This document shows positions 2,836-24,595 of a stretch of DNA of 24,965 nucleotides, piece by piece. Position 1 is the first letter of the stretch. Every line of letters starts with the position of its first letter. The DNA comes from a virus (taxonomy: Duplodnaviria > Caudoviricetes). The stretch is from positions 1-24,965 of IMG/VR virus record IMGVR_UViG_3300027769_000122. One strand, written 5' to 3'. Made by a program: the position numbers and the translations under genes. Under the pieces are notes generated by a model that ran no database searches, was not told where the DNA came from, and saw nothing but the letters and a program-made list of their open reading frames with translations.

Positions 2836-5016
2836 ATGGGCGTAAAGAAACAAATGGATACATTTTTTGCCAGTTTGGGTGAGCAAACTGGATACCGTGG
2901 AAGATTGGTAAACACTCCTATGGGACCGTTCCGCTGGAACGATGCCATTGAATTGTGGGAAAACGTCAACAACGGTATGGTGATGAATAACATTTCTTTC
3001 ATGGATGAATTCGCCATGATGGATTACAGTGCTACCGATGGTGGTGCGGATATTCCTGCAAATAGAATTACTGTTTTGGAATTTGATTTTAGATCTGGTG
3101 TATTGCCTTCTGTATTTAATTTTTACAGAGACTCTATTGGTACTTTTGTAAACTCTCAAGGATATCTTGATTACAGCGAAGATAATTTAATAAGAAATAC
3201 TGTTTTTAGCGGCGCAACCGGAACCACGCCTCCTACAAACTGGGGTACAACTAATAACGGATCTAATACTTTCTCCTTAAATAATAAGGAACTTACTTTT
3301 ACAGCTGGTGTTTCTGCTGCTAGATTTATTATTCAAACATCACCCACCGTATCTGTAATTCCCGGTGTACCATATACACTGCAGTGTAAGGTTGTTGCAG
3401 TGAACTTAACAGTCGATTCTAAACGTTTAGGTGAAGTGATTGGATGGGCGAGCGGTCAACTTGCAGGTTCAGAAATTTATAGAGTAAATGGAATTCAACA
3501 AACAAGCACGTATACAGGTTGGACTGCTGGTGACCTCATATCTTTTACCTGCACACCAACGTCTACTACAAATGCAATAAGTCCAAGATTTGGGATGGGC
3601 GTTAGTGGTGTAGCTCCTGCTTTAAATAATTTCTTGACTATTAAAGAACCTCAACTTGAAGCTGGGGTAAGTGCTAGAAACTATATTGAAAATACAAATA
3701 CATATCCTTATTACGGACCAAGATTTACTTTTGATAGTGTAACCAAAGCACCTCTGGGGCTTCTTTTAGAAGGAAGAGGAGTAAATTTTGCTGCACAAAA
3801 TTACAGTCCAACATTAGCAGGATTTTCAACCTCCTTACAAACACGTACAGCTGCAGGAAATACAGCCGATCCATTTGGTGGGACTGCTGCAGTTGCTTTA
3901 TTTGCTCTCGGTACTGCTGGGGTAAAAACCTTGAGCATGAACATAGTTATGACTAACATTGCTACTTTAGCTGAGCAGGGTAGCAATTTCGGAGAATATC
4001 CGATAACTATTTCTGTGTATGCTCGTCCAAATAATTACAGCAAACTAGCAATAACAGATGCTAATAGTCAATGGGCTGGTGCAACTTTTGATTTAAATAC
4101 TGGAAGCTCCAGAGTTATTAGTGGACCATCTACAGGACCGTTTACGCCTGCTGGAAGTTTGCTTTTTGGAACAACTGCTTATACAGTTCCTCTGGTTGGT
4201 ACAAATGGAATTACTTGGTGGCGTTGTGTTTTGGCTCTACCAAAAGGAAATTCAGCAACCACAATGGCTCTTGGATTTGGTGGTTACACAAATGATTCTG
4301 CTATGTTTGGTTCTTTTGGAGTATCATATATAGGCACCGGAGTTACCGCAGATGGTGTATTTGTATTTGGTCCACAAATAGAATTGGGTTACGGTGCTTC
4401 TTCTCTCATACCAACCGGATTAACTGGAGTAAATCCTGCTATCTCTGGAAGAGGTATTACAAGAGAAAGCGATGCGGCTCAGATAAGAAACATAGATGGA
4501 TACAATATAAGCAGAACAGAAAACAGCTTGTATTTAGAAGGAAGAGTAAACAAGACAACAAGCGATAATGATGCTTTCACGACAGTTTGGGGTCTATACT
4601 CCGACCAAAGCTCTTTCTTGGCATTCGATATTCTAACCTATCCACTAAGAACACAATTTAGTTCAAGAGTACAAGGAGTAACTTTGGGACTGGGTGGTGC
4701 ATCTGAATCGGGCACAAGTATTGTTAGAAATTTACTAAATTCTCCAATAAAAGTAGCAGGAACCATGACTCTAGGTAGTGGAAATCAACTAACATTTACT
4801 GCCATAAACGGATTCTCTGCTGCAAGAAACTATACACCGCTTGGTCAAACCATGTTTATACCAAGCCGGTTTGTTTTAGGTCATCCAGTAGGAGTATCTT
4901 CATCACTTCCATACTCACCACCAATTAATAGAGATAATTTAAGTATGTCTATAGCAAAAATTGGATACTACAATTACGCTCTAGGAAATACAGCTGCTAC
5001 AAATCTTACACTTTAA
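2836..5016 (+). CDS. Virion fibre/spike protein with carbohydrate-binding and lectin-like domains
   Basis: Motifs FNFYRDSIGTFVNSQG, PRFTFDSVTKAPLGLLLEG..N, two PQ(L/I)ExG..A...I motifs and ITRESD are characteristic of phage head-spike/tail-fibre lectin proteins; Gly/Thr/Ser-rich. Confidence 0.65.
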   Translation: MGVKKQMDTFFASLGEQTGYRGRLVNTPMGPFRWNDAIELWENVNNGMVMNNISFMDEFAMMDYSATDGGADIPANRITVLEFDFRSGVLPSVFNFYRDSIGTFVNSQGYLDYSEDNLIRNTVFSGATGTTPPTNWGTTNNGSNTFSLNNKELTFTAGVSAARFIIQTSPTVSVIPGVPYTLQCKVVAVNLTVDSKRLGEVIGWASGQLAGSEIYRVNGIQQTSTYTGWTAGDLISFTCTPTSTTNAISPRFGMGVSGVAPALNNFLTIKEPQLEAGVSARNYIENTNTYPYYGPRFTFDSVTKAPLGLLLEGRGVNFAAQNYSPTLAGFSTSLQTRTAAGNTADPFGGTAAVALFALGTAGVKTLSMNIVMTNIATLAEQGSNFGEYPITISVYARPNNYSKLAITDANSQWAGATFDLNTGSSRVISGPSTGPFTPAGSLLFGTTAYTVPLVGTNGITWWRCVLALPKGNSATTMALGFGGYTNDSAMFGSFGVSYIGTGVTADGVFVFGPQIELGYGASSLIPTGLTGVNPAISGRGITRESDAAQIRNIDGYNISRTENSLYLEGRVNKTTSDNDAFTTVWGLYSDQSSFLAFDILTYPLRTQFSSRVQGVTLGLGGASESGTSIVRNLLNSPIKVAGTMTLGSGNQLTFTAINGFSAARNYTPLGQTMFIPSRFVLGHPVGVSSSLPYSPPINRDNLSMSIAKIGYYNYALGNTAATNLTL

Positions 5017-5534
5017 TTAACGCCAGTCGATCCAAATCCGCCAACCCGGTCTGTCTTCAGGCCGGGTTGGTTGTATATTTCACCAAAATTTACTTGCTCA
5101 TACTTTACAACTTCACCTTGGGCGATTCTATCTCTGTTGTAAATTTTAATAGGCTCTTGTGCGTTTGTGTTGATCATAATTAACTTTGTTTCATACGTAT
5201 AATCTTCATCTACAACGCCCTCGCAGTTTGCCAATGTAAGACCATACTTTAAGGCCATACCTGATCTTGGGTGAAGCCTAATTGAATATCCACTAGGAAC
5301 ATCAAAAGTCAACCCAGTGCGAACCAATGCACGCTCTCCGGGCATAAGAAGAATATAATAATCTTCCTTGTCGTGATCGTACTGTGGTTCGATCTCGCTA
5401 GTCTCTTTTCCTTCCCACACCTTTACTTTTTCATCTTTTGGGATGTAGGCCGCAAGATCAAAACAAGCAGCCATCTTGGTTTGGTAGTTGGGGTCTACAA
5501 TTCTTGGATCAACTTTATAATAGTTTAAGTACAT
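5013..5534 (-). CDS. dut: Trimeric dUTP pyrophosphatase
   Basis: All five motifs present: AACFDL, PRSG, GVVDEDY, DRIAQ, RVGGFGSTG. Confidence 0.95.
   Translation of the reverse strand: MYLNYYKVDPRIVDPNYQTKMAACFDLAAYIPKDEKVKVWEGKETSEIEPQYDHDKEDYYILLMPGERALVRTGLTFDVPSGYSIRLHPRSGMALKYGLTLANCEGVVDEDYTYETKLIMINTNAQEPIKIYNRDRIAQGEVVKYEQVNFGEIYNQPGLKTDRVGGFGSTGVN
5040..5080 (+). terminator. Probable intrinsic terminator of the plus-strand cassette, embedded antisense in dut
   Basis: CCAACCCGG-T-CTG-tctt-CAG-G-CCGGGTTGG (13-bp stem with one U.G) followed by TTGTATATTT, starting about 25 nt after the stop at 5016. Confidence 0.6.
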
Positions 5535-5540
5535 AATATC

Positions 5541-5568
5541 AATATATCACACTGTTATTGTGTGTCAA
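5541..5568 (-). promoter_or_regulatory. Sigma70-like promoter TTGACA-N16-TATATT (TGn-extended -10) for dut
   Basis: Minus strand TTGACA cacaataacagtgTGa TATATT gatatt ATG; perfect -35; ATG 6 nt after the -10; no SD. Confidence 0.65.
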
Positions 5569-5834
5569 CAATCTGAGCAGTCAAAAGAAAATTCAGATTG
5601 TGTTTTTATCCAAGCATAGACATCACTTATAGACAAATTATCAGGAAATTCAGACTCTGGAATGATAAAATTAAAAACTTTAATTGGTTTAGATAAACTT
5701 AATCTTGCTTCTTCTGAAGCATAACCAGATAATTCTACAGTGCGTGTATTGTTCAATAAAAACTTTATTTCAGTAATTTTCCAATACTGAGCAACTGTTC
5801 CATATTCGGTAGAATAAAGTTTTGAAAGCGCCAT
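5565..5834 (-). CDS. Small hypothetical protein, possible fibre-associated chaperone
   Basis: 89 aa; YWKI...GYASEEAR...YAWIK pattern recalled from small genes that follow phage fibre genes; TAATG coupling to the upstream gene. Confidence 0.5.
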   Translation of the reverse strand: MALSKLYSTEYGTVAQYWKITEIKFLLNNTRTVELSGYASEEARLSLSKPIKVFNFIIPESEFPDNLSISDVYAWIKTQSEFSFDCSDC

Positions 5835-7357
5835 TATTCAAAGTATCCGTTTACAGCAAGACTTGAATGGAAAGTCAATGTTGTTGTAGCACTAACACTG
5901 AATGGTCTCATTACAAACAAGAAAGCTGTACCAGCTGGAATAACCAAGGGACTGTTGAATGTTACTTCAAATCCGGGTTTTACGGTTCCTACTGCATCGG
6001 TCGTCAAGAAACCGTGACCACCTACAACAATACCGCGTGGAGCTACCGTGTTAGCACCATCTGTCGTGCTTGTGGCAACAGCACCAGCGTTGTTATAACC
6101 TCCAGCAGTAACTATAAAAGACACAAATGCTGGGTTGGTGGTAGGCGCTGCTGTCATAAATGCTTCACCCACACGCAATCCAGTAATGTACAAAGTTTTA
6201 CCGGGCAAGGTGGGGGTACCAGCTGGATTTACAAAGTTAAAAATTGGATAATCTGTATCAGTTGCCGTGTTTGCAGCTATTGTAAATAGCCCACCCAAAC
6301 TGTTTAAGCTTGGTGCCGACGTTGCCGTGTAAGTACCTGCGGCTCTTGTGGTACCGGATGTGGGCCATCCCTGTGCTCCAGCAGCTGCTCTTGTAACTGT
6401 AGGACCGCTTGCAGATCCTTGCTGAGTTTGATATGATCCCTGACCGGAACCGCACATTGCATGTGACCATGGTTTTGATGAGTTTTGGTCACCTTGGCCG
6501 ACATTTATGAAACCTACGCCAAATTGTCTACCAGCAGATGCAATACCAAAATTCACTACGCGAACACCAACAGGTATATTTGAAGATGCTGTTGGGAACT
6601 GAAGCGAACCGGGGACATCTATGCTTGCGACCAAAACATCGTTAATCCAAAATCTTACAACGTCGTTGTGGAATACAATTAGATAATGGTTTACCTCAGT
6701 AGGGTCATACGATCCAACGCCGTCTCTTGACGGTATATTTGCTGTAACGATGTCAACTGTAGTTTCTACTGCGTTGTTGTTTACAACTGCACGCAATACA
6801 CCACCAGAAAGTCTTCTAAAAAATATTCCGTCAATGTTACCTGCTGTTGGAGTTTGAACAGCTGCTTGAGCAGCAGAAGCAAAATAAAGAAATCCCCATT
6901 CACTTTGCGCATTTGTTGCAGCATAGTTTGCTTCTCTTCCCCATATATCACAGTATGTTGGATATGTTCCAAACGTAGGGAATGATCTATAAGTACGAAC
7001 ATATGCAGCCTGACCTGATGTAGTGGAGGTAGTGCTGTTTACAGTCAAAAAGCCGTTTGCCTGAGCAACGGCCATTGTTGTGTTTTGTTGCAACAAGTGA
7101 CCTTGGGGTATGTTTGTACCTTCAAAAGACAGATTAAATAATGTCTGGTCCAGACCAACACGCAAACGATAGTCATCTGAAACTTCTGCGGGCAAAGTTG
7201 TTCTTTCGCCCAAAACAGTTCCATCATCTACCTCTGAGCTAATATTGACAAATCCAGCAATTGAAGCATCTGTAGGTGTATTTACATTTAAGTCATAATT
7301 GCTGCTTACGTTAGCCAATCCTGTCGAATTATTACCAGTTCTTATTTGAACGCCCAT
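5834..7357 (-). CDS. Virion structural protein, ConA/LamG-like beta-sandwich (paralogue B, 507 aa)
   Basis: Beta-rich; NHYLIVFHNDVVRFWINDVLVAS resembles LamG/GH16 strands; colinear with 7389..8912; late promoter and AAGGAG RBS upstream. Confidence 0.6.
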   Translation of the reverse strand: MGVQIRTGNNSTGLANVSSNYDLNVNTPTDASIAGFVNISSEVDDGTVLGERTTLPAEVSDDYRLRVGLDQTLFNLSFEGTNIPQGHLLQQNTTMAVAQANGFLTVNSTTSTTSGQAAYVRTYRSFPTFGTYPTYCDIWGREANYAATNAQSEWGFLYFASAAQAAVQTPTAGNIDGIFFRRLSGGVLRAVVNNNAVETTVDIVTANIPSRDGVGSYDPTEVNHYLIVFHNDVVRFWINDVLVASIDVPGSLQFPTASSNIPVGVRVVNFGIASAGRQFGVGFINVGQGDQNSSKPWSHAMCGSGQGSYQTQQGSASGPTVTRAAAGAQGWPTSGTTRAAGTYTATSAPSLNSLGGLFTIAANTATDTDYPIFNFVNPAGTPTLPGKTLYITGLRVGEAFMTAAPTTNPAFVSFIVTAGGYNNAGAVATSTTDGANTVAPRGIVVGGHGFLTTDAVGTVKPGFEVTFNSPLVIPAGTAFLFVMRPFSVSATTTLTFHSSLAVNGYFE

Positions 7358-7385
7358 TTTAAAAGATCTCCTTATCGATCTATAC

Positions 7386-7392
7386 TATTTAT
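7386..7392 (-). promoter_or_regulatory. Late promoter aATAAATA
   Basis: Built around the TAA of the upstream gene (GAA TAA ATA G); AAGGAG RBS downstream. Confidence 0.6.
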
Positions 7393-8912
7393 TCAAAATA
7401 TCCATTCACCGATACCCTACCTTGGACGGTCAGGGTGTTTGAAGTTACAACTCCAGCAGGTCTTATAATAAACTGGAAAAAGCAGTTAGGAGGAATAACC
7501 AAAGGACTATTCAATTTTATAGAAAATCCGGGCTGTACTGTTCCCGGTGTCGCACCTGCAGTAAACCCATGTCCACCGATCATGATGGGTCTATTTGCAA
7601 AAGCAGTAGCACTATCTGCTGTTGATGTGTTGATGGTTGAACCAACTGCTGCTATAAAAGAGAGAAAAATTGCATTTGTGCTTGCTGCTGTTACTGCAAA
7701 ACTGTCGCCTACATTAATTCCAGTAATATATAAACTTTTTCCGGTTATTCTTTGATTTGGCGGATAATTTTGCCATGAAAATACTGGATAATCCGCGTCG
7801 GAAGTTAAAGAAGAAATTAATGGCGTCAACCAAAAACCACCCAATGATGGTTTAGCTGGTCCGGAAGTTGTAACCCAAGCTCCAGATGTAAGACCTGTAC
7901 CTGAATCTGGCCAACCAGCAGTACTACCTGTACCTCTTGTTACCGTAGATCTTGAAAAAGTAACTCCAGATTGGTTTTGATATGAACCATTACCAGCACC
8001 AGCCATTGCACCTTCATATGATCTATTTGAATTTTGATCACCCATTGCTACGTTAACAAATCCAAGATACATCTGTCTCGTTGGTGTCGAAGATGTTTCC
8101 GTATTCAGAACTCGGAATCCTACTGGTAAATTTGATGAAGCTGATGGAGTTACGAAAGTTGAACCACTCAAATTTATTTGAGACACCAATCTTTCATTTA
8201 CCCAATATCTTACTCCATCATTATGGTACGAAACCACATAATGGTTGTAATCTTGTGGGCTATATGTAGTTCCGGTCTTTGAAACTAAAATTGATGTTGT
8301 TATTCCCTGAGACAGTTCCAAAGAATTATTATTCAATACTGCAAATAAACTTCCACCAGAAATTCTTCTGAAATATGCACCGTCAAATGATGTTCCACTG
8401 GTTGGGTTGGAAATTATTTCTGAACCAGATGGAACATCAAAAAATCCCCATTCACTCTGAGCATTTGTTGCAGTAAAACCAGTTTCTCTCAGCCACACAT
8501 CCATATATGTTGGATAAGTACCGTATACTGGAAAATGTCGGTATGTTCTGGTATATGAAACACCACCCGAAACACCAGTCGCTCCACTATTCAACAAAAA
8601 ATAGCCAGCGGTTTGTCCGTTTGTCATACCGTTGAAAGTATTCTGTTCTAAATGTGAGAATGGTTGAGCTATTCCCTCAAACGACAGATTAAATATGCTT
8701 TGATCAATTCCTGTTCTTAAACGATAATCATCACTTACATCCAGAGGAAAATCAATACGATTTCCCGTTGCAAGACCATAGTCAAGCAGTCCACCTAAAT
8801 TTAAAAAACCAGAACCATCTGTAGTATTGGGAGTTACTACATTTAGTCCATATGAAGCACCAACGTTTGCTAAACCGGGAGTATTGTTTCCACTCTTAAT
8901 ATTAATAGCCAT
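7389..8912 (-). CDS. Virion structural protein, ConA/LamG-like beta-sandwich (paralogue A, 507 aa)
   Basis: Shares DDYRLR, FNLSFEG, GTYPTY, ATNAQSEWGF, GDQNS, LYITG, NSPLVIP and VNGYFE with 5834..7357; GAGGA RBS. Confidence 0.6.
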   Translation of the reverse strand: MAINIKSGNNTPGLANVGASYGLNVVTPNTTDGSGFLNLGGLLDYGLATGNRIDFPLDVSDDYRLRTGIDQSIFNLSFEGIAQPFSHLEQNTFNGMTNGQTAGYFLLNSGATGVSGGVSYTRTYRHFPVYGTYPTYMDVWLRETGFTATNAQSEWGFFDVPSGSEIISNPTSGTSFDGAYFRRISGGSLFAVLNNNSLELSQGITTSILVSKTGTTYSPQDYNHYVVSYHNDGVRYWVNERLVSQINLSGSTFVTPSASSNLPVGFRVLNTETSSTPTRQMYLGFVNVAMGDQNSNRSYEGAMAGAGNGSYQNQSGVTFSRSTVTRGTGSTAGWPDSGTGLTSGAWVTTSGPAKPSLGGFWLTPLISSLTSDADYPVFSWQNYPPNQRITGKSLYITGINVGDSFAVTAASTNAIFLSFIAAVGSTINTSTADSATAFANRPIMIGGHGFTAGATPGTVQPGFSIKLNSPLVIPPNCFFQFIIRPAGVVTSNTLTVQGRVSVNGYFE

Positions 8913-8924
8913 TTTTATAAATCC

Positions 8925-10595
8925 TCATGAACCCTGACATTTTATAGAATATTTACCATACGTACCATTTGGTGCGTGTCCGATCACGTCAAAACCTGTT
9001 CCACCCACTATATTATTTATTTCAAAAGATACCTGTTCAAGTATGGCATCTTCGGCAGTATGATCTGCTGTAGTCAATCCCAAAACCTTGCAATCTACAA
9101 ATGTATCAGGTGTTATCCAAGTTATTCCCGTTATTGTTTTTATTGTATAAGTTTCCTGTTGGTGAAACAGTGTTTGACTTTGAATATTTGTCCAAAAATC
9201 TCCAGCCGTTGCAGTTGTTATATAAACAGTATTGATTGTTTCAGCTATAATTGCTTCTGCGGTAGTACCAATTCCACCTGTAAATGGTGGTTTTATTATA
9301 AGTCTGGCAGACCAACCATTTGTATCATCATAAAAAGACTGAATGCTTTCTAAAACACAACTGTATCCTACTGCAGATCCAGTATCAAAAACTACAGTGA
9401 CTGGTGGATTGTTTTCAATGTTTCGCAAAATTGTACCGAAATCAACACCAACTCCATAAATTACAAGTTCAATTTGGTTTACCAATTCAGAAAAATCTAT
9501 AGTCTGTGTTGTTGAATATATTGAACTTCCACCGCCACCGGAAGAAGTTGAAGCGATGGTAAATGTATTGCCAGATACACTTAAAGTTATTCCAGTCCCA
9601 GCAGCAAGATTTACTGAACCTGTCAGACCATTGAAAGTAGAAACATATTGAGTTAATCCACTACCGCTTGGAGTTGCCCATGTGATTCCGCTTCCAGTAG
9701 ATGTCAAAACTTGATTGTTAGAACCTTGTGAAGAATTTATCAGTAAAGTATTTGTAAAATTTACAGGTCCAGTAAATGTTGCACCAGAAGCACTTAATCC
9801 AGCATTAAATCTTACAAGACCGCTAAAAGTACCACCAGCAGAACTTAAACCAACATTGAAGGTAGTAAGAGCATCAAATGTCTTTGTTCCTCCAAATGTT
9901 TGTGTTCCAGAAAGACCTGCGAGAATTGTTGTGATATTTGGTAGAGTTACTGTCTGACCTTGAGGATTAAAATCTAAAATAGATTGATTTAATCCATTTC
10001 TCCATATAATATCATTAGCAACCGGATCAATCGTAACGCCCGCGCTATTTAAAGTGTCATCAATGCCAAATACTGCTCCAGATGCAGAAATTGTTTGTGG
10101 GGCACTAAAATTATTATTAACATTTGTACGAGCAACATTCGAAATTGCACCAGTAGATCCATCAATACTCAATACTCCAGTATTCGAAACAGTCAGAGTG
10201 TTTCCAGAAACTGATAGGCTTATTCCAGAACCGTTGGTCAAACCAACAGTTCCAGTAAGCCCCCTAATACTACTCACACCTTGAACTGCACCAGTTAAGC
10301 CATTGAAACTAGATATACCCTGAACAGCACCTGTAAGACCATTGAAAGAAACTACATAGGGCCCAGATATTCCCCCACCACTGGCAGATGAAGAAATTGT
10401 AATTGTATTTCCTGCAGAAGTTAACGTAATACCACTTCCAGCAGAAAGACCTACTGTACCAGTAAGTCCATTTAGGGTATTTACAACAGGTGTGGTGCTA
10501 TATACATCCCACGCAGTTCCGTTCCACTGCCAAGAACGACCACCAAAGGTGTAAATTTCGTTTAGTGATGGGGATGGAGGAAAATCTAATGGCAT
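8925..10595 (-). CDS. Tail-fibre-like protein with (S/T)FNGLTGAV repeats
   Basis: N-terminal FPPSP...YT..GRSWQWNGTAW motif; several NGLTG(A/T/S)V and AGSGITL repeats typical of phage fibres; late promoter 7 nt upstream. Confidence 0.7.
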   Translation of the reverse strand: MPLDFPPSPSLNEIYTFGGRSWQWNGTAWDVYSTTPVVNTLNGLTGTVGLSAGSGITLTSAGNTITISSSASGGGISGPYVVSFNGLTGAVQGISSFNGLTGAVQGVSSIRGLTGTVGLTNGSGISLSVSGNTLTVSNTGVLSIDGSTGAISNVARTNVNNNFSAPQTISASGAVFGIDDTLNSAGVTIDPVANDIIWRNGLNQSILDFNPQGQTVTLPNITTILAGLSGTQTFGGTKTFDALTTFNVGLSSAGGTFSGLVRFNAGLSASGATFTGPVNFTNTLLINSSQGSNNQVLTSTGSGITWATPSGSGLTQYVSTFNGLTGSVNLAAGTGITLSVSGNTFTIASTSSGGGGSSIYSTTQTIDFSELVNQIELVIYGVGVDFGTILRNIENNPPVTVVFDTGSAVGYSCVLESIQSFYDDTNGWSARLIIKPPFTGGIGTTAEAIIAETINTVYITTATAGDFWTNIQSQTLFHQQETYTIKTITGITWITPDTFVDCKVLGLTTADHTAEDAILEQVSFEINNIVGGTGFDVIGHAPNGTYGKYSIKCQGS

Positions 10596-10602
10596 GTCTT
10601 AA

Positions 10603-10610
10603 TATTTATA
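10603..10610 (-). promoter_or_regulatory. T4-type late promoter TATAAATA
   Basis: Exact consensus overlapping the upstream stop; 7 nt to ATG 10595. Confidence 0.8.
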
Positions 10611-11841
10611 CGATTTCAAACCATGAAAGATCTGTATAACCTTGTGTGTTATTTGTCGTAGGAACCAGTACGAGAACAAATGTATCGCTTACTCCCAGTT
10701 GAGTTCTTCCTATTTGAAAATTGAAATCATTTATGGTAGATACATCCAAGGTTCCGCTGCTGCTTATATATCCACCTATAATATCAGTTCCGCCAGTAAC
10801 TCCCGTAGCCGTAACATTATATTGAACATTTCCATTGAAATGTGTTTCCCACGTGTTTCCCGTTAAAGTTGGATTTAATAAAATTCTATATTGCACTACT
10901 AATGGTTTGTTATTTGTTCCCGGCTCTATTGCCACACTAATATTTGACGGTACAATAATACTATCCAATCTATCGGGGGCCATTCGTATTGCAATCAGTG
11001 GATATTGAGTTCCTGCTGTTGTTAAAGTATGGGGTGTGGTTCCACTGTGGGTTACGTTGTATCTTCTGCTGAATCCTTCATATCCACCTTCAGACAATAT
11101 TGTTGAGCAAATTTGCCTCATTGTACTGCTTGTTGCTTGGCTAGAAGTATTTTCAATTTCATATCTCAAAGGCAAACATGCGGTTGTCATGTAAGTTGTT
11201 GAATTTTTATTCGTATTGTAGAATGTATGTGCTACGACTGGTTTTCCATCTATATAAAATCCAGTTCGAACATCACCCACACCCAACCATTCAACATCCA
11301 GCCAAAAAAGATTTCCCTTTGTTACATCTATTGTAACACCAGAATCACCAGTTCCATCAAATTTATCACCATTCCAATTTGACTGTGTTATTGTTTGTGT
11401 AGTTCCGAGTGAAGCAGATGCCAAACAAATTGATAATGTCAACCCATCTTGCTGTAAGTATACACCGTTGTATGGTGTTCCTGATGTGACTCCACCTGTT
11501 ATACCAAAATATCCAACCCTTTGGCGCAATCCACTTTTTGGTTGAGCCATTGCAAATGAGTCAACAATAGTTAAAGATTTTCCCGGTTGGTACGGAAACA
11601 CTCTTTTTGTTTCGACGTACATCTTAGAACCATTTGTTAGACCTGCTGTTAGAGATACCGTGCTTTCTGTTGGATTAAAAGAATAGGTACCACCACTGAG
11701 TCCAACATAATCCCATTTATCACTAAGTGTATATCTTTGCTGACTATCGAATAAAGTAAATGGATTGCTAACTTTTAGTCGATTAAACGCATCAACCACA
11801 TTTCCCTTGAAACCTACTAAATCATTGTATAAGTATGTCAT
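10606..11841 (-). CDS. Virion structural protein, lectin-like fold (DAFxRL family)
   Basis: DAFNRLKVSNPFTLFDS, TKRVFPYQPGKS, WLGVGDVR and MTTACLPLRYEIEN motifs recalled from T4-like phage structural proteins. Start moved from 11856 to ATG 11841 (TAATG coupling). Confidence 0.65.
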   Translation of the reverse strand: MTYLYNDLVGFKGNVVDAFNRLKVSNPFTLFDSQQRYTLSDKWDYVGLSGGTYSFNPTESTVSLTAGLTNGSKMYVETKRVFPYQPGKSLTIVDSFAMAQPKSGLRQRVGYFGITGGVTSGTPYNGVYLQQDGLTLSICLASASLGTTQTITQSNWNGDKFDGTGDSGVTIDVTKGNLFWLDVEWLGVGDVRTGFYIDGKPVVAHTFYNTNKNSTTYMTTACLPLRYEIENTSSQATSSTMRQICSTILSEGGYEGFSRRYNVTHSGTTPHTLTTAGTQYPLIAIRMAPDRLDSIIVPSNISVAIEPGTNNKPLVVQYRILLNPTLTGNTWETHFNGNVQYNVTATGVTGGTDIIGGYISSSGTLDVSTINDFNFQIGRTQLGVSDTFVLVLVPTTNNTQGYTDLSWFEIV

Positions 11842-13694: not shown

Positions 13695-13700
13695 TTTAAG

Positions 13701-13707
13701 TATTTAT
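13701..13707 (-). promoter_or_regulatory. Late promoter gATAAATA
   Basis: TGATAAATActtaaaATG; overlaps the upstream TGA. Confidence 0.7.
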
Positions 13708-15386: not shown

Positions 15387-15388
15387 AA

Positions 15389-17107
<1,719 letters not shown>

Positions 17108-17108
17108 T

Positions 17109-17115
17109 TATTTAT
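17109..17115 (-). promoter_or_regulatory. Late promoter gATAAATA
   Basis: GATAAATAattacaaATG; 7 nt to start 17101. Confidence 0.7.
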
Positions 17116-17121
17116 CTCATA

Positions 17122-19104
17122 TTATATACTTGTTGTTTCAAGATAAATTGATCCCAAAACGGCTCTAGAATCTAAATTTTGTCCTATAAATACATCTAAA
17201 GTTGTCCCTACAATTATATTATTTGCCGCTGTAATATCATAAATTTGAGGCGATGTTGTTCCCGGTATATATGCCGTTGCAGCTGTAATAGTTGGTCCTA
17301 TTTGGGCATAACTTCCCGATGTCAAACCACCAAAAACTTTTATTTCTCTTCCAGACCAGTTGCTGCTGCCACCAACAACTCCATTGATTACTACTTTTAA
17401 TTTATCAATTGCTACATTTTGTCCATATGTTGGAAAACTATATGTAGTTCCGGGCGAGGTTCCTGTTATCAAAAATCCAGATGAATTGTTTATTGAATTA
17501 TAGTTCTTATCCATACCACCAAATACACCACCTGAAAGAGTATATGTAGCACCATATAATTCATGACTGCCCTTCAAACAAATATTTTGAATATTTTTAC
17601 AATTTTGATATATTATAGGTGGAACAACAGAAAACTGAGCAATACCACCAGTCACTGTGAGTATATCTTGTGGTCTTGGAGCGCGTGCACAGTTTTTTAT
17701 TACGACTCCCCAGTTGTTTGCTCCACCTTTTCCTGAGACTGGTTTTCTTTTAATTTTTGGTGTATCCAAACCATCTGTTGTACCCCATTCACCACCGTCT
17801 ATTTCTATAAAGAAATTGTTTCCATTACTTATATCTATTTGATATACGTTTGGATCTGGATTCCCACCCTGTATTCCACAATTTATTAATTTTATATAAG
17901 CACTACCAGTTAAGCCTAGTATCTTACTAGTTCCATTGGTTTTTGGTTCATATTCCCATTTGCAATTTGTTAATATGTATTGAGATACTGCATCAAGACT
18001 TGGTAATGCAACACCTGTCCATGGATTTACCAAATTGCTTCCGGCACCGCCATTGTCAATGGCTAAAAACGTTCCGGGCATTATTATTGTTGCAGTATCT
18101 ATATGGGTATACTCAAATCCATATATATCAAGTGCTTTGTCCCAAATTTCAAAAAATTGACATTCTTTGAAATGATTGCTCAGTGCTTGTGAACTTCTTG
18201 CCCATATTACAGTATTTGCTTCTCTAAAATCGCAACAATCAAATGTATTTGTATCATCATTTGCATTGTTTGTAGAAAACAGTACAACTTTATCAAAACC
18301 ATAGGTGGTAACATTTTTCATTTGAAAACCTTTTCCACCACCAACACCATTTAACCATACCGCATTTCTTTTCATTGTGGGGCCAGTTAAACCTAAACCA
18401 GAAAATCCAATATTTTCAAATCTTAAAAATTGGTGAATATTTGAATAAAACATAGAACCTAAAGTCGTATTTCCGGTTTCCAGTAAACTACAATACTGTC
18501 CATCTCCAACAATACTAAGATTAAAGCATGAGAGTAAATGTACAGAACAAGTTACTCCAGTAAATCCCGTTAATTCGTAACCAGAAGTCCATCCCTGAGC
18601 AGTTCCAACATAAAAATTTCTATCAAGTCTGTAATTTCCTCTAGGTACATATATTGTACCCGAACTTGCGGGAATATTTGGAGCGATAGATTTTACACCA
18701 ACAGGAACTGTAAATCTCAGATAATTATATGCATTTTGAAATGCCAGACTATCATCGGTAACACCATCGCCCACTGCACCGAAATCTTTAACATTTACAA
18801 AATTATCTAATTTTGAATTTATTGTTCTTTGAACAGATGGATATGTTGTAGCTGGTGTATTTCCGTATTGATATTTGTAGGTTGTAGAAAGTGTATACGT
18901 ATTTCCAGATATACCAATCGTTATACCAGATCCAGCAGAAAATCCAATAGTACTTGAAGAAACTGCACCCACGGTAACGCCACCGATAGTAGATCCATCA
19001 CCAACATACAATAATTTGGTATCGGTTGTATAAATTAATTCACCAGTCAAAAGTGCTGTTGATAATCTTTCGGCGTTGGTGCCTCGTCTTAGTTGAAATG
19101 GCAT
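17122..19104 (-). CDS. Tailspike/depolymerase: Mtd_N-like anchor plus pectate-lyase-3 beta-helix
   Basis: QLRRGT...GELIYTTDTKLLYVGDG; VQRTINSKLDNFVNVKDFGAVGDGVTDDSLAFQNA; GTIYVPRGNY; Asn/Cys-ladder beta-helix. Confidence 0.8.
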   Translation of the reverse strand: MPFQLRRGTNAERLSTALLTGELIYTTDTKLLYVGDGSTIGGVTVGAVSSSTIGFSAGSGITIGISGNTYTLSTTYKYQYGNTPATTYPSVQRTINSKLDNFVNVKDFGAVGDGVTDDSLAFQNAYNYLRFTVPVGVKSIAPNIPASSGTIYVPRGNYRLDRNFYVGTAQGWTSGYELTGFTGVTCSVHLLSCFNLSIVGDGQYCSLLETGNTTLGSMFYSNIHQFLRFENIGFSGLGLTGPTMKRNAVWLNGVGGGKGFQMKNVTTYGFDKVVLFSTNNANDDTNTFDCCDFREANTVIWARSSQALSNHFKECQFFEIWDKALDIYGFEYTHIDTATIIMPGTFLAIDNGGAGSNLVNPWTGVALPSLDAVSQYILTNCKWEYEPKTNGTSKILGLTGSAYIKLINCGIQGGNPDPNVYQIDISNGNNFFIEIDGGEWGTTDGLDTPKIKRKPVSGKGGANNWGVVIKNCARAPRPQDILTVTGGIAQFSVVPPIIYQNCKNIQNICLKGSHELYGATYTLSGGVFGGMDKNYNSINNSSGFLITGTSPGTTYSFPTYGQNVAIDKLKVVINGVVGGSSNWSGREIKVFGGLTSGSYAQIGPTITAATAYIPGTTSPQIYDITAANNIIVGTTLDVFIGQNLDSRAVLGSIYLETTSI

Positions 19105-19130
19105 ATTTTATCCCTTATACTAATATTTAT
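18974..19130 (-). repeat. 157-bp imperfect direct repeat, copy 1 (late promoter + RBS + first ~43 codons)
   Basis: Matches 21474..21630 at an offset of exactly 2500 bp, with identical blocks of 50 and 40 bp. Confidence 0.95.
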
Positions 19131-19131
19131 A
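19124..19131 (-). promoter_or_regulatory. T4-type late promoter TATAAATA
   Basis: Exact consensus overlapping the upstream TAA, then an AAGGG RBS and ATG 19104. Confidence 0.8.
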
Positions 19132-21604
19132 TGGTTATTACAGCCATTCCAGAACCAGAACCATTTGCAAAAGTTAATCCTTCAGAACTTATACTCACAT
19201 TTCTTCCAAACCAACTGGTTGTTCCAGCTCCCGTATTATTAAACACAAAGATTACATTTGTACTATGATTACTTAAAATACTATTTACAGTTGCTGTTTT
19301 TCCTGACAAAGAACCAGTTATAATTTCATTTGCAGTAAATCCTATAGTATTTATTCCTATTTGTGTAGTTCCTCTAAATCCTGTTATAGATGAAATTATT
19401 CCACTGCTTGATCCTGCAATATTTTCATTTAACAAGAAACCAGAATTTGTAGAAACACTTAAACATTTTGTATCAGATCCTGTTACATTTCCATGCGTCA
19501 CAACTCTTCTTGATTGGCCTATAAAAATATCAGCTCTTGTTCCTGTAGACAAATTTGCAGTTTGCAATCCATTGAATATTGTATTGTCTGAAACATGAAC
19601 ATTATCAATATAACCATTCCATCCCAAAAGTGTTGATCCCTGTCCTGATACAACGATTGCCGATTCCGCACCTCCAGCTGGTTGTTGTGTTCCTGATGTT
19701 CTAGTTCCATCTATATTATTATTTTTGCAGATAACAGATTTTTTTACGGGACGACAATATAAAGCACTGCCGTCATATGAATTAAAAATTTTATTTCCTT
19801 GAAAAATTACACTATTTGCTATTATATTGCTACCGGCATGTATCAACATTCCTCCAACATTGCTGCATGTATTGTTTGAAAAATTAATAGTATTAAACAG
19901 TGCTTGACATATTCCAGCAGCAGCAGCACCAGCTCCTATATGCGCTGCACCCTGTGGATAATTTTTTCCAGCCTGAATTACATTTCCTTCAATAATAACA
20001 TCTATGTCTTCACCAGTATAACCACGATTTATTAAGGAAAGCCACATTCTTCTGTCAGTATCCCCAGCGGTTCGTGTTTGATTTTCATTAGCGTATTCCA
20101 TTACATTATTGGAAATATTAATTATTCCACCCTGAGCGGTAGTAAAACCTAAAGAATCAAATTGTCCACCAATATTGACAAATACACCAACTGTGTTAAC
20201 ATCTGGTACATTGTTAGTTCGCATATAATTATTTTGAATATTGAGATTTGTGCCTTTTAAGAAACCAACATATATCAAACCTGCATTTTCTCCAATAATT
20301 TGACAACCATCGATTGTTATTTTATCGCCTGCAATATTAAATCCACCATCAACAAAACAATTCACAAATTTAATATATTCTGCACCTAAATGGGTATCAA
20401 CTGCTCCAATTATATTTGATGAATTTGATGAATCTGTAATTCTTAAAGCCGAAATTCCATTAAATGTTATATTTCTGTTAATAACACCTAAAGATGGATA
20501 ATAACGACCACTACCACTAAGATAAGTTGGAGTGGTTCCTATTGTAGTTGCGTGTCGTGCTGCAGTGTAATAACCACCATTTACTAAAATATTTTGGCTA
20601 TTATATATGGTAAGCCCATAATCTAAACCATATTGACCACCGCCAACATCTTCAGCGTAGCAATTATTTACATATAAATTATCACACTGTCCTAAATTTA
20701 ATGCTTCTGCTGAACAATTTGTTACTTTTACATTTTCAATTGCTGTATCTTTTAGATATCTTAATTCTATTCCAATATCATAACTTCCTGATATACCTTG
20801 ACCAATAACACCTAAATTTTTAACACTTCCATTTGAATAATTTAAAACTTTATATAAAGATAAACCAGATAAAGAATAATTATCATAAAAAGTTCCTTGA
20901 ATTACAGCACCCGTGGTTCCCTGTATTAGACCTATTCTTCTTATTTCACCTTTATTTGGTGGAAAATCTGTTATATATAAATTCCAAGCAGTATTTCCGG
21001 TAACCCAAACCATGTCACCTACTGACAATCCGTGTGGTGTTGTAAAATTTAATGTTCTGCTTCCTTCAGAAATACCAGAGACTAAATTTGGTAACAAACT
21101 CCAAGTAACACCAGATACTGAATTTTTTAATACTGGTATTTGCGTACCCCAACAAGAACCTGCGCGACCATCGATCATCGATAAACTTGGACCATCACCA
21201 AAAATAGAAATATCTTTTGGAATTGTAAGAGTCGCATTAACTTTGTAGGTTCCCGCCGGAAAATAAATATTTTGATAACCAGAATTCAAAGCATTTTGAA
21301 TTGCTGTTGTATCATTTGCAACACCATTTCCAAGTGCACCGTATTCTTTTACAGATACAGAATAATTTATTAGTGCGCCAGTTATAGATCCTGTTTTACC
21401 ATTTATCGAAGACACTCCAGTTACAGCACCAGTAAGTCCATTAAATGAAGATACGTTTAAACTATTATTTGCTGTAACGCCACCGATAGTAGATCCATCA
21501 CCAACATACAATAATTTGGTATCAGTTGTATAAATTATCTCACCTGCAAGAGGTGTTATGGTCAATCTTTCGGCGTTGGTTCCTCGTCTCAGTTGAAATG
21601 GCAT
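19127..21604 (-). CDS. Tailspike/depolymerase: Mtd_N-like anchor plus right-handed beta-helix
   Basis: Same N-terminus as 17122..19104; VSVKEYGALGNGVANDTTAIQNAL..IYFPAGTYKV; repeated I.I.NN/GN beta-helix rungs. Confidence 0.8.
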   Translation of the reverse strand: MPFQLRRGTNAERLTITPLAGEIIYTTDTKLLYVGDGSTIGGVTANNSLNVSSFNGLTGAVTGVSSINGKTGSITGALINYSVSVKEYGALGNGVANDTTAIQNALNSGYQNIYFPAGTYKVNATLTIPKDISIFGDGPSLSMIDGRAGSCWGTQIPVLKNSVSGVTWSLLPNLVSGISEGSRTLNFTTPHGLSVGDMVWVTGNTAWNLYITDFPPNKGEIRRIGLIQGTTGAVIQGTFYDNYSLSGLSLYKVLNYSNGSVKNLGVIGQGISGSYDIGIELRYLKDTAIENVKVTNCSAEALNLGQCDNLYVNNCYAEDVGGGQYGLDYGLTIYNSQNILVNGGYYTAARHATTIGTTPTYLSGSGRYYPSLGVINRNITFNGISALRITDSSNSSNIIGAVDTHLGAEYIKFVNCFVDGGFNIAGDKITIDGCQIIGENAGLIYVGFLKGTNLNIQNNYMRTNNVPDVNTVGVFVNIGGQFDSLGFTTAQGGIINISNNVMEYANENQTRTAGDTDRRMWLSLINRGYTGEDIDVIIEGNVIQAGKNYPQGAAHIGAGAAAAGICQALFNTINFSNNTCSNVGGMLIHAGSNIIANSVIFQGNKIFNSYDGSALYCRPVKKSVICKNNNIDGTRTSGTQQPAGGAESAIVVSGQGSTLLGWNGYIDNVHVSDNTIFNGLQTANLSTGTRADIFIGQSRRVVTHGNVTGSDTKCLSVSTNSGFLLNENIAGSSSGIISSITGFRGTTQIGINTIGFTANEIITGSLSGKTATVNSILSNHSTNVIFVFNNTGAGTTSWFGRNVSISSEGLTFANGSGSGMAVITI

Positions 21605-21630
21605 ATTTTATCCCTTATACTAATATTTAT
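21474..21630 (-). repeat. 157-bp imperfect direct repeat, copy 2 (contains ATAAATA at 21624-21630)
   Basis: See copy 1. Confidence 0.95.
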
Positions 21631-21643
21631 TAGTTTTTTAAAA

Positions 21644-22480
21644 TTATAATCCGCTTGCAGAAGTAAAACCAAACCCACCATCAAAGTATACACTATTTGG
21701 TATAGTAACCGATCCCATATCTATAGGTGATGCTTGTATTAAAAATTCTAAAGTGTTAGATACCGTAACACCAATCTGCCCAAAATCTAAACTATATAAT
21801 GCTGGTATATTTGATCCAGAACTACCAGTTATTGTAACATTGCCTGTCTGGCCATTTACAGTATAAACAATATTATTTGCTTGTATTCTTCCGTTTATCT
21901 GAGCAGTACCACCAGAAGGAGTTATTACTAAATTTCCTACTGAACTGACATCTAAATCGACATAATTTGTTAGACCAACTGGAATATTATATCCAAGTCT
22001 TACATTTTTTCCAGTACTGTGGTTTACAAATAATGCTGAAGTTGTATTAGATGTTCTATTAATATTAAAATTAATATTATAAGTTCCACCACGGTAATCT
22101 ATAGCATTGATTCTGTTAACATTAGATTCTATGTATATAGCGGCAGTGTCACCGATAGAAACATCCCGTGAGCCCAGTGATAAACTAACTGGTGCAACAA
22201 CTGAAAATGCGTTGTTGTTATTTATTCCCTCAGCATTTATAAAAGTAGCTGTGCTCGGACGAATTAAAGTTATTCCAGCAGCGCTTATTCCAGATAAAAA
22301 GTTTTGTACTCCAGAAAAATTTTGAGCACTGTTTGTTACGGCCAAATTTGTTATTGCGCCAGTTTGTCCGTTTACAGACGTTACTGCTCCAGTAGGACCA
22401 ACAGGACCTTGAATGCCCTGCGGTCCCTGTAATCCGTATAGTGCCGTATATACAGTTACATTAGGAATTCTATTGCTCAT
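21644..22480 (-). CDS. Short fibre/adaptor protein (short collagen stretch, VNGQTG repeats, C-terminal D-x-G motifs)
   Basis: GLQGPQGIQGPVGPTG, SVNGQTGAIT and TVNGQTGNVT, tail LDFG..IDMG..FDGG. Confidence 0.65.
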   Translation of the reverse strand: MSNRIPNVTVYTALYGLQGPQGIQGPVGPTGAVTSVNGQTGAITNLAVTNSAQNFSGVQNFLSGISAAGITLIRPSTATFINAEGINNNNAFSVVAPVSLSLGSRDVSIGDTAAIYIESNVNRINAIDYRGGTYNINFNINRTSNTTSALFVNHSTGKNVRLGYNIPVGLTNYVDLDVSSVGNLVITPSGGTAQINGRIQANNIVYTVNGQTGNVTITGSSGSNIPALYSLDFGQIGVTVSNTLEFLIQASPIDMGSVTIPNSVYFDGGFGFTSASGL

Positions 22481-22481
22481 T

Positions 22482-22877
22482 TTAGTTTTCTGTTACCTGT
22501 AATAGACTGTTGATCGTTCCTCTCAATAGCGTAACGATGCCACCATTGTTTGGATATTGCATTTGAATGTCGTAGAATACTGGAACATAATCTGGGAACT
22601 GGTTTGTGTAATTTGATCCTACCGTTACGTATATAAGTCCACCTGTGCCAGTTACTGCTATACCACCTGTAACACCGTCGGGTGGATTGAATGTGGTTCC
22701 AGAAGTAACCCCCTGAACATATTTTACAATCTCATTTCCGGGATAATAAGATTTTCTGATTTCCATAGTCAAAGTGACCCCCGTGAGGTTGTATGCGGCT
22801 CCAGTGCCACCACAAACCCCCATGGCCCATGTTACGGTATCACCTTTTACTATAGTAGGATTGTACGAGTCTGCCAT
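22482..22877 (-). CDS. BppU-like/virion adaptor beta-sandwich protein
   Basis: IVKGDT...YNLTG...MEIRKSY...G.IYV...FYDIQM...TLLRG.I pattern. Start moved from 22889 to ATG 22877, which has a GGGAG RBS. Confidence 0.6.
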   Translation of the reverse strand: MADSYNPTIVKGDTVTWAMGVCGGTGAAYNLTGVTLTMEIRKSYYPGNEIVKYVQGVTSGTTFNPPDGVTGGIAVTGTGGLIYVTVGSNYTNQFPDYVPVFYDIQMQYPNNGGIVTLLRGTINSLLQVTEN

Positions 22878-22887
22878 TTTTGCTCCC

Positions 22888-22920
22888 AAAAAATAATAGC
22901 CTTTATTAGAGGCTATTATT
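22888..22920 (-). terminator. Inverted repeat with U-tract, probable terminator after the gp62-regA-GT unit
   Basis: AATAATAGCCT-ctaataa-AGGCTATTATT (11-bp perfect stem) then TTTT on the minus strand. Confidence 0.6.
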
Positions 22921-22923
22921 AAG

Positions 22924-22930
22924 TATTTAG
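22924..22930 (-). promoter_or_regulatory. Variant late promoter CTAAATA
   Basis: CTAAATACTTAA shares TAAATACTTAA with the promoter at 13701; only candidate upstream of the structural cluster. Confidence 0.45.
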
Positions 22931-22943
22931 GTCTTTTTAAAAA

Positions 22944-24167
22944 TTAAAGAGTCACTGCAACTTTTTTAGGATCTATATCCAAAGTTGTCCTATTCATGTT
23001 TTTTGCAGCTTTTTCTGCCCAATCTTTTTGTTGCTCTGCAACCTGTTCTTGGAACTTTTGGAAAGCCTGCATATAAATTTTGTAATTATTTTCTACTCTT
23101 GGTCTGTGTTCGTTAGGCAAGTGTGGCTCGCTTAACAATTTTTGACATGCTGCCATACCTGCTTGCGGTCTTCCAGCATAAAACGCTGTCGTACCGATTT
23201 CGTCAAAAATTCCCCAAAGATAGTTTGCGTTGTCAACGAACAAGATATCATTCTGTGGTAGTGGCATGCTCAGACCCAATGAGGCCACTAGGAAGGCATT
23301 TCTTGGTCTTTCATATTTTCTATAAATGCAAGACAAGTGATATAGTGGTTCGACTCTATTTGGAGCACTTTCAAATGCCATCATGAATGCATCTGCAATC
23401 TGTTCAACTGGCTTGCCCAAAAATTCTCTGCACATACCAACACGCATCCATGAGAAGAATACCTCTTCATGCCAGCCACCTTGCTTAATGCGCTTCATGT
23501 ACTCTTCTTCGGCAATCGCAAACATTCTTGCATCAAATGCCGACTGAGCTGCATAAAATTGCTTTCTTGGTTGATCTGGATTCTTGTCCAAGAATCCCTT
23601 CAAAACGTAATAATCCTTGGTATACTTTTCGATGTCGTTTGATACAGATCTGGAACGACAACCTTCTGTCCTTACTTCCCAAGCATAATCGCCTTCAAGC
23701 TTCTGGACATTCATTGGCTGTTCGCAAATAGCATATTCGTGAAGTGGCTCTTCATACCACCACTTCTTCTTTGCTAGATTGAACAATTGGGCTCTTAGCC
23801 ACTTAAACTCTCCACGCTTGATTTGGACAACATAACCGTCCAAATTATCGTCAAACTTGTCAACTGGTAGAGTTCCAACGATAAAGTCGTCGGCATCAAT
23901 CATCATTGCCCACTTGGTTTTACCTAGGCAAAGTTCAAGTGCCTTAGAACGATTTGTACCGAAGTCAGACCATTCATGGTCGTGAATCTCCCCCGGAATA
24001 CCCTTTTCATCAAAAAACTTTTTGATGATCTCCTTTGTATTGTCGGTGGATCCTGTATCACAGATTACATAGTAATCAATGAATGGTGCGCATGAAGCCA
24101 AGCATCTTTCGATGTTTGGAGCTTCGTTCTTTACGATCATACTCAAAGTTAATTTGTGCATATTCAT
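22944..24167 (-). CDS. Family-2 glycosyltransferase with TPR-like C-terminal domain
   Basis: SMIVKNE...IERCL, DTGSTD, W.DFG.NRS, DADD (DxD), PLHE, followed by helical TPR-like repeats (FYAAQS, PNRVEPLYHL). The second ATG (24161) has the better RBS (TAAGGA). Confidence 0.9.
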   Translation of the reverse strand: MNMHKLTLSMIVKNEAPNIERCLASCAPFIDYYVICDTGSTDNTKEIIKKFFDEKGIPGEIHDHEWSDFGTNRSKALELCLGKTKWAMMIDADDFIVGTLPVDKFDDNLDGYVVQIKRGEFKWLRAQLFNLAKKKWWYEEPLHEYAICEQPMNVQKLEGDYAWEVRTEGCRSRSVSNDIEKYTKDYYVLKGFLDKNPDQPRKQFYAAQSAFDARMFAIAEEEYMKRIKQGGWHEEVFFSWMRVGMCREFLGKPVEQIADAFMMAFESAPNRVEPLYHLSCIYRKYERPRNAFLVASLGLSMPLPQNDILFVDNANYLWGIFDEIGTTAFYAGRPQAGMAACQKLLSEPHLPNEHRPRVENNYKIYMQAFQKFQEQVAEQQKDWAEKAAKNMNRTTLDIDPKKVAVTL

Positions 24168-24169
24168 CC

Positions 24170-24595
24170 TTATGTATTAAAAAACCTACGAAGAGAACCG
24201 GGATTAAACTTTGGGATCAAGTCCCAATCATCCCGTTCATTATATTTAATGATTTTTAAACCTGCCAATGGCATCTTTTCTTTTACTTTTTGCTTATCTA
24301 CTATCTCTAGCAGCTCCCAGTCTTCAAGAAGTTGAATGATGGCATTCCTTCTTTTAATGTCGTCTTCCGAGACATTTGATGGGAGACCATCTAAAGCAAA
24401 TAGTTCTTTAAAATGAGCTACAATGTACACATCATTTTTATGAATGAGATGGCATGATTGATAAAGTATTTTTTTACCTTTTGGGGACACGCCTATCCGA
24501 GATAGGGTTTCTCTTACAACCATGAAATCTTCAGGATCAAATAAGTTTACATGAACGCCTACATTATTAAAAATTTTATCTGAGTTTTCCGACAT
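24170..24595 (-). CDS. regA: T4-like translational repressor RegA
   Basis: DFMVVRETLSRIGV..K..LYQSCHLIHK..YIVAHFKELFALDG...DD..RRN.I..LL.DW.L; canonical position downstream of gp62. Confidence 0.95.
   Translation of the reverse strand: MSENSDKIFNNVGVHVNLFDPEDFMVVRETLSRIGVSPKGKKILYQSCHLIHKNDVYIVAHFKELFALDGLPSNVSEDDIKRRNAIIQLLEDWELLEIVDKQKVKEKMPLAGLKIIKYNERDDWDLIPKFNPGSLRRFFNT

Follow-up and report, generated by a model that had tools for sequence, protein, structure and literature searches.

Why should a glycosyltransferase (GT) gene stand at the head of the fibre genes of a T4-like phage, and what would its product modify? The question is raised by a 25-kb fragment of an uncultured T4-like phage, IMG/VR record IMGVR_UViG_3300027769_000122 (positions 1 to 24,965, hereafter the window), in which a gene for a GT2 enzyme with tetratricopeptide repeats (TPRs) precedes a cassette of Gly/Thr-rich open reading frames (ORFs). 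Sequence comparison, together with the analogy to SgtA of Clostridioides difficile, makes it probable that this GT2-TPR enzyme O-glycosylates the Thr of G-x-T on the phage's own fibres, spikes, adaptor and sheath, the acceptor word having spread from collagen to globular domains. The excess of the motif, the architecture and family of the enzyme, the constant location of its gene just before the fibre cassette, and the retention of Thr beside a free middle residue are established, and the tests able to refute the reading came out mostly in its favour. The initial annotation had proposed virion O-glycosylation at a G-x-T sequon; the proposal is supported in part: it gains from an excess beyond composition that is absent in four GT-less genomes, from the enzyme family and from a sequon-like evolution, and loses from the restriction to one lineage and from the GT carrier Tunturi_5.

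In the 12 putative structural ORFs of the window, G-x-T is observed 192 times versus 93.4 in shuffled sequences. The excess persists when collagen blocks are masked (144 versus 76.2, z 9.2), when the masked sequences are shuffled locally over 20 residues (144 versus 80.3, z 8.8), and when a recurring S-x-N-G-x-T-G fibre repeat is masked (136 versus 74.7). With collagen masked, G-x-T ranks first among 1600 spaced residue pairs, and the control patterns are flat (observed/shuffled: G-x-S 75/65, T-x-G 78/77, G-x-x-T 65/77; G-T and T-G likewise). The best contexts are G-x-T-[G/A] (47 versus 14.1, 3.3-fold) and a hydrophobic x (60 versus 19.9), while other contexts are raised as well. A motif acting at the DNA level is ruled out, since the corresponding pattern GGN4AC is raised in the coding frame only (131 versus 69.5 in 10 non-collagen genes; 3 versus 4.1 and 6 versus 6.8 in the other frames, 43 versus 30 on the reverse strand). 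The earlier remark that fibre, spike and adaptor proteins are rich in G-x-T, in collagen and in globular parts alike, therefore holds, as do the counts of six sites in the adaptor and none in RegA; the GT has three sites, not two. The proposed comparison of late and early proteins by shuffling gave a less uniform picture: 11 of the 12 structural ORFs are enriched at least 1.5-fold, but one (5834-7357) is depleted (3 versus 6.6), and 10 non-structural ORFs of the window also exceed their shuffles (11 versus 4.6). The middle residue is conserved (0.96-1.00) in the G-x-T of the GT and dUTPase families and of the UvsW of relatives, versus 0.40-0.64 in virion families; with x fixed across homologs, the GT and dUTPase sites look like enzyme motifs.

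The features concerned are the following, in the order of the minus strand.

24170..24595, minus strand: regA (PF01818), without G-x-T, the fixed upstream neighbour of the GT gene, given for context.
22944..24167, minus strand: GT2 + TPR glycosyltransferase of 407 residues, predicted to be an initiating protein O-glycosyltransferase (PF00535, E 8e-12; profile matches).
22890..22943, minus strand: intergenic region between GT and adaptor, with a CTAAATA word (putatively late-promoter-like) overlapping an 11-pair hairpin followed by a T run.
22482..22889, minus strand: BppU-like adaptor (phrog_1084), 135 residues from TTG or 131 from ATG, 6 G-x-T.
21644..22480, minus strand: fibre-like protein of 278 residues with a short collagen stretch, G-x-T 9 versus 2.8; no family match, putative virion role from position and repeats.
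19127..21604, minus strand: tail spike of 825 residues, Mtd_N + beta-helix by family matches, G-x-T 18 versus 10.4.
17122..19104, minus strand: tail spike of 660 residues, Mtd_N + pectate-lyase-like by family matches, G-x-T 20 versus 8.6; TATAAATA upstream.
15389..17101, minus strand: collagen-like fibre of 570 residues with GPT/GAT/GST blocks (Pfam Collagen, triplet counts), 46 G-x-T in total.
13707..15431, minus strand: ORF of 574 residues, no family, start uncertain, G-x-T 9 versus 5.5; homologs in the same cassette of relatives.
11841..13478, minus strand: protein of 545 residues with two collagen blocks and a conserved C-domain (family search, triplet counts).
10606..11856, minus strand: virion structural protein of 416 residues (o416; phrog_1645, E 8e-97), predicted ConA-like lectin fold, 13 G-x-T.
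8925..10595, minus strand: fibre-like protein of 556 residues with S-F-N-G-L-T-G repeats, G-x-T 23 versus 10.9; TATAAATA upstream.
7389..8912, minus strand: paralogue b of 507 residues (o507b), G-x-T rich by shuffle counts, 13 versus 6.7.
5834..7357, minus strand: paralogue a of 507 residues (o507a), 47% identical to b and G-x-T poor, 3 versus 6.6; an internal control.
2836..5016, plus strand: head-spike-fibre-like protein of 726 residues (NF048003 GTA_spike_fiber, E 4e-7, below cut-off), G-x-T 16 versus 9.0; ATAAATA upstream.

Family matches in this cassette thus comprise two tail spikes, two collagen fibres, a cyanophage-type virion protein (phrog_1645), the BppU-like adaptor and the head-spike-like protein; the five ORFs without a family match are taken as structural from their position and composition. 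Collagen blocks had been said to carry G-x-T, which is the case for the 570-residue fibre and not for the long block of the 545-residue protein. Of note, the latter combines two kinds of collagen, a charged block of 52 triplets (Thr at Y 0/52) and a GPT block of 10 triplets (8/10).

By sequence, the enzyme belongs to the protein/peptide transferase family. Its GT2 domain is found by Pfam, and a profile built from 16 homologs and searched against solved structures and consensus proteins matches the flagellin transferase GmaR best among the former (3e-21; PDB 22ao), followed by SunS (1e-16 over positions 3-222), with 7msk also matched. The same profile matches the consensus TPR over positions 176-298 (1.6e-13). 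Pfam TPR_2 is found in 8 of the 16 profile members and no Pfam TPR in the window GT alone, so that the earlier description of a GT2+TPR gene directly upstream of the cluster stands for position and for GT2, with the TPR seen by profile only. Similarly, the likening of the architecture to SunS and SgtA is borne out by profile matches to SunS and GmaR, SgtA being compared through its described architecture only. Invariant in the 16 homologs are DTGS, IDAD (90-93, the DxD motif), R125-x-Q127 and H143-E144-Y145. A single-sequence model of the GT is helical in the TPR region but has a pLDDT of 44, and it was left out of the fold search. The score for the SunS family TIGR04195 is 36.2 bits for a cut-off of 350, which places the enzyme outside that family.

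The motif itself appears, from alignments, to evolve like a sequon, with Thr selectively kept and x free. In seven virion families of the lineage (539 columns), Thr is retained in homologs at 0.70 within G-x-T versus 0.52 for other Thr (bootstrap confidence interval of the difference 0.10-0.26); Thr that neighbours Gly in some other arrangement is likewise kept at 0.52. No such gap is seen in the outgroup major capsid protein, sheath and o416 (0.44/0.50, 0.47/0.49 and 0.34/0.38, respectively), nor in the major capsid protein of the lineage (0.50/0.72). A lineage-specific insertion of nine residues in o416 (residues 118-126), absent from the cyanophage homologs, consists of two tandem G-x-T in which x varies between I, V and L at one site and V, F and A at the other. 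The tandem paralogues o507a and o507b carry 3 and 13 sites, and five further homologs 2-6; because paralogue a and the other homologs carry few, the fold needs no G-x-T sites. Furthermore, cassette regions shared by at least 15 other proteins show an observed/expected ratio (O/E) of 2.23, versus 1.44-1.69 in rarer regions. The adaptor family reaches 2.96, although two of the adaptor sites may presumably be family-wide BppU features; BppU_N is found on 16% of the members of one Atlas cluster.

The excess was then compared across whole phage records, as the collagen-masked O/E in proteins with Gly+Thr above 0.17. Three GT carriers, G002, G003 and G010 (records 75, 70 and 49% complete), give 1.54, 1.60 and 1.61, each with G-x-T at rank 1 of about 1500 pairs, and 0.87-1.04 in their other proteins. 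The complete T4-like records G006, G007, G008 and S-RIM50, which are GT-less in the sense of having no match to the GT profile, give 1.11, 1.02, 0.97 and 1.13. Proteins with an O/E of at least 1.8 number 13 of 27 on the GT-carrier side versus 2 of 68 on the GT-less side, and 39 further viral loci with GTs 44-70% identical have a pooled O/E of 1.75. In G002, the excess extends past the cassette to the tail sheath and to two very large proteins. The latter correspond to ORF stretches of 1631 and 1447 residues (L140:15104-19999 and L141:3-4343), possibly one gene, far from the GT and without a PHROG match, in which G-x-T is 2.1-2.5 times expected. The co-occurrence check suggested initially thus separates these carriers from the four complete GT-less phages, but it does so within one lineage and with three weak or flat carriers, considered below. 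The record G005 (no GT, O/E 0.81), 49% complete and with just 4 proteins that qualify, was given no weight. Two regions of huge phages that surround distant GT homologs contain hardly any qualifying Gly/Thr-rich proteins.

The gene keeps its place while the cassette behind it changes. Among 73 viral GT loci surveyed, regA lies directly upstream in 64, and the adaptor is the next gene in 55 of the 64 loci that have a downstream gene. A search with RegA for close relatives without the GT returned none: the GT follows in 15 of 16 loci, and the contig ends in the remaining one. The cassette downstream is highly variable in content among relatives, whereas the GT position is fixed. In relatives, collagen genes are often two genes from the GT; in the window they lie 5.8 kb downstream of it. 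Sugar-pathway genes are found upstream of the GT in all 12 loci scanned (86 proteins) and include nucleotide-sugar enzymes, further GTs, and glycan-type methyl- and sulfotransferases. This island adjoins the GT in distant relatives and lies about 7 kb upstream in the closest one, L001 (GT 99% identical), a position that would fall past the window's end. In one relative (L013:1680-2387), the island holds a PLOD-type GT domain (PF25342), a type linked to collagen glycosylation. In L040 (10001-12353), L041 and L043, the GT2-TPR gene is tandemly duplicated (410 and 372 residues, the second copy about 63% identical to the window GT).

Bacterial homologs (30-39% identical) were examined in the best 79 loci of those scanned, against the best 80 control loci around GMD genes. 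A collagen-like ORF lies within 8 kb in 29/79 of them and is Thr-rich in 26, versus 0/80 Thr-rich collagens in the controls (Fisher p 1e-9, kinship ignored). The collagen-paired loci span Myxococcota, Chlamydiota, Actinomycetota, Pseudomonadota, Bacteroidota and Acidobacteriota, with no Bacillota genome among the best 79. That GT2-TPR genes pair so commonly with Gly-x-Thr collagens beyond Bacillota (loci L248-L326, in Chlamydiota, Myxococcota, Streptomyces and Pseudomonadota) suggests a broad bacterial module for collagen glycosylation. In the collagen near phage GTs, Thr occupies Y in 3855 of 9073 triplets (42%); for viral collagens generally, Table 4 of PMC3368898 gives 8.9%.

Both virion glycosylation, from mycobacteriophages, and a Thr acceptor in Gly-x-Thr collagen, from a spore protein, are already documented. 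SgtA joins a GT-A domain to four TPRs, and its gene lies upstream of bclA3; the enzyme transfers beta-O-GlcNAc to the Thr of single-site GPTG or GATG peptides and also accepts Ser, as described in PMC7157674 (Tables 1-2). The arrangement is that of the window, with the enzyme upstream of a Gly-x-Thr collagen-like surface protein, and the accepted peptides contain GPTG/GATG, the best-enriched context here. In contrast, the SgtA/BclA3 system concerns a spore surface, with one known substrate and a motif confined to collagen repeats, whereas here a virion is concerned and the motif is distributed over about 11 proteins, mostly outside collagen. Listeria GmaR, which adds GlcNAc to flagellin according to PMC9638930, is also a GT2 domain followed by TPRs and acts on a filament protein, but it is 637 residues long, with an antirepressor domain and a flagellin target. 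SunS and ThuS (PDB 7msn, 7msp, 7msk) are prophage-derived GT2 enzymes with a helical C-terminus and a peptide acceptor, matched over about positions 3-223, but they S-glycosylate a bacteriocin, and no glycocin precursor is seen in the window. For GmaR, we know of no link with G-x-T. In mycobacteriophage Che8, phage GTs O-glycosylate virion proteins (Freeman 2023, as summarised in PMC13445384 and PMC12619734). The likeness would lie in phage-encoded GTs acting on virion proteins; there, capsid and tail-tube C-termini are modified, the candidates here being fibres, spikes and sheath, over which a short motif is scattered. A tblastn search with the window GT matched 9 of 50,697 phage records, none of them a mycobacteriophage. 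Large T4-like cyanophages such as S-SCSM2R and P-SSM2 also carry clusters of GTs and nucleotide-sugar enzymes, which the account in PMC12801897 reads as host-surface or DNA modification.

The GT would add the first O-linked sugar to Thr of Gly-x-Thr, best in G-x-T-G/A. It would be made with the replication genes, ahead of the late proteins (no late-promoter word lies upstream of it, 0/47), and would act in the cytoplasm on chains still being made, in the manner of SgtA on Gly-x-Thr peptides of BclA3. The variable sugar-gene island seen in relatives a few kb off probably elongates and decorates the glycan. The ancestral target may have been Thr-rich collagen, on which sugars would make the triple helix more stable or better hydrated; the acceptor word would then have spread, in this lineage, into loops of globular virion domains. 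A wider claim, put forward tentatively and with slightly more doubt than belief, is that a widespread aquatic T4-like lineage might possess a self-contained sequon-directed O-glycosylation pathway, with a fixed initiating GT2-TPR enzyme, a hypervariable O-antigen-like island building the chain, and a three-residue word selected into any new outer virion protein. If true, it would provide each strain with its own glycan coat. A phage with such a word spread over its particle would in any case extend the two documented systems. It would suggest a function, open to testing, for the large sugar islands of aquatic T4-like phages, which are mostly interpreted as modifying the host surface, and would provide a soluble enzyme whose acceptor motif is very short. 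No description of a phage G-x-T sequon was found in the literature searched, which covers few subscription papers.

Several observations weigh against a dispersed sequon, and its main rival is that the GT acts on Thr-rich collagen only, as in the SgtA/BclA3 pairing, the dispersed G-x-T being a structural habit of the lineage (the Gly sits in a beta-turn and the Thr starts the strand after it) added to inherited fibre repeats. Tunturi_5 has a GPT/GAT collagen fibre beside its GT and an O/E of 1.02 elsewhere, and the carriers G004 and G001 reach 1.10 and 1.25 (1.72 and 2.02, respectively, in the G-x-T-[GA] context). The bacterial loci show 0.92 outside collagen, and 50 of the 79 have no collagen. 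Outgroup core virion proteins, from phages that may or may not carry the GT, already stand at 1.33, and the major capsid protein does not discriminate (1.27 in the lineage versus 1.50 in the outgroup). In a quick tree of 77 rows, made from a sample of GT homologs with that of G010 left out, the 40 aquatic T4-like GTs form one clade (SH-aLRT 99), so that the dispersed motif and its co-occurrence in phages rest on about one evolutionary event; the GTs of Tunturi_5, of G001 and of the two huge phages are interspersed with bacterial ones. In the o416 model (pLDDT 81.7, Foldseek matches to legume-lectin/ERGIC with E about 1e-6), the Gly of G-x-T is off-strand in 10/13 cases versus 24/30 for other Gly, the usual turn pattern; since this share is the same, burial of the sites is neither supported nor excluded. 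Chance would account for about half of the G-x-T sites. Although SgtA accepts Ser as well, G-x-S shows no overall excess and is raised only as G-x-S-[GA] (24 versus 11.8), and the virion location of several cassette proteins without a family match is presumed. A restriction to collagen is nevertheless rather unlikely: the same folds work without the sites (o507a versus o507b, cyanophage o416), outgroups lack the Thr retention gap, the o416 loop is new and free in x, and the excess grows with the breadth of region sharing.

The two other targets proposed fit worse than O-glycosylation of the virion. It is improbable that the GT works with the sugar island on the host surface (lipopolysaccharide (LPS), pili or flagellin) as a means of superinfection exclusion or of escaping grazers, G-x-T then being unrelated or recognised by a different enzyme, of the island or of the host. 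The island does resemble O-antigen loci (GMD, epimerases, DegT, FkbM), the PHROG label of the window GT is beta-1,4-glycosyltransferase, LPS core glucosyltransferases presumably belong to the same GT2 subfamily, and the missing late-promoter word would suit such a role, which has been proposed for cyanophage islands in PMC12801897. Against it, protein acceptors are indicated by the TPR domain and the best matches, Gly-x-Thr collagens accompany the homologs in several phyla, and the GT stays next to the fibre cassette whatever the content of the island. Glycosylation of the phage DNA, finally, is very hard to credit, even if the GT is the last gene of a gp45-44-62-regA run, an Nmad1-like ORF (PF07659, below cut-off) adjoins the DNA polymerase and DNA-modifying phage GTs are known (PMC12619734): no DNA-modifying GT occurs among the 31 solved-structure matches of the GT profile, full-length homologs are widespread in bacteria beside collagen genes, and the motif would be left unexplained.

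As regards transcription, TATAAATA or ATAAATA lies upstream of 6 of the 12 putative virion genes. The hairpin at 22890-22943 (-15.5 kcal/mol, z -2.1; 7 of 200 shuffles equally stable) is weakly supported; its combination with CTAAATA between GT and adaptor recurs in several relatives and could block read-through from early transcription and still let late transcription begin. Discarded was a sigma-70-like site (24268-24239), which is within shuffle range (9 found versus 6.7) and lacks the -10 hexamer in many relatives. RNA-library contigs span the GT and cassette (X8, 29/30 bins), a coverage that does not by itself show transcription.

The minus strand of the window reads gp62, regA, GT, eleven Gly/Thr-rich ORFs, an ORF of 89 residues and dUTPase; the span initially proposed as one system also takes in the last two, neither of which is part of it. 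Four plus-strand ORFs follow, then the Nmad1-like ORF and the DNA polymerase. Membership of the T4-like phages is indicated by gp43, gp62 and regA in T4 order, and a relative also encodes gp23, sheath, portal and terminase. A freshwater metagenome label is attached to 11 of the 12 sequencing runs holding at least half of the sampled words, and a genome-contig search for the host found no close homolog.

Two candidate discriminators were set aside. The major capsid protein, outside the window, carries G-x-T in an insertion region of relatives and also in outgroups. Cyanophage S-SRM01, in which the sole GT2 match is distant and N-terminal (E 4e-9), seemed a counter-example with 1.69 on one 41-kb stretch, but is flat over 240 kb (1.02). 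It encodes a protein of 516 residues (L504:12221-13771) that starts with GT2, looks helical in the middle and resembles a methyltransferase at its end, and the baseplate proteins of the same phage repeat G-I-G-[ST]-T, possibly a different system. In G004, flat overall, the C-terminal extension of one protein (L157:9019-9867), which we take to be a gp15-like tail sheath stabiliser, is packed with G-x-T (10 versus 2.3 expected). Many ORFs of L047 appear fragmented, the GT included (114 + 267 residues), possibly through sequencing errors or another genetic code. Lastly, the Nmad1-like ORF of the window (1153-1485, minus strand) could be a clue to base modification in another part of the genome.

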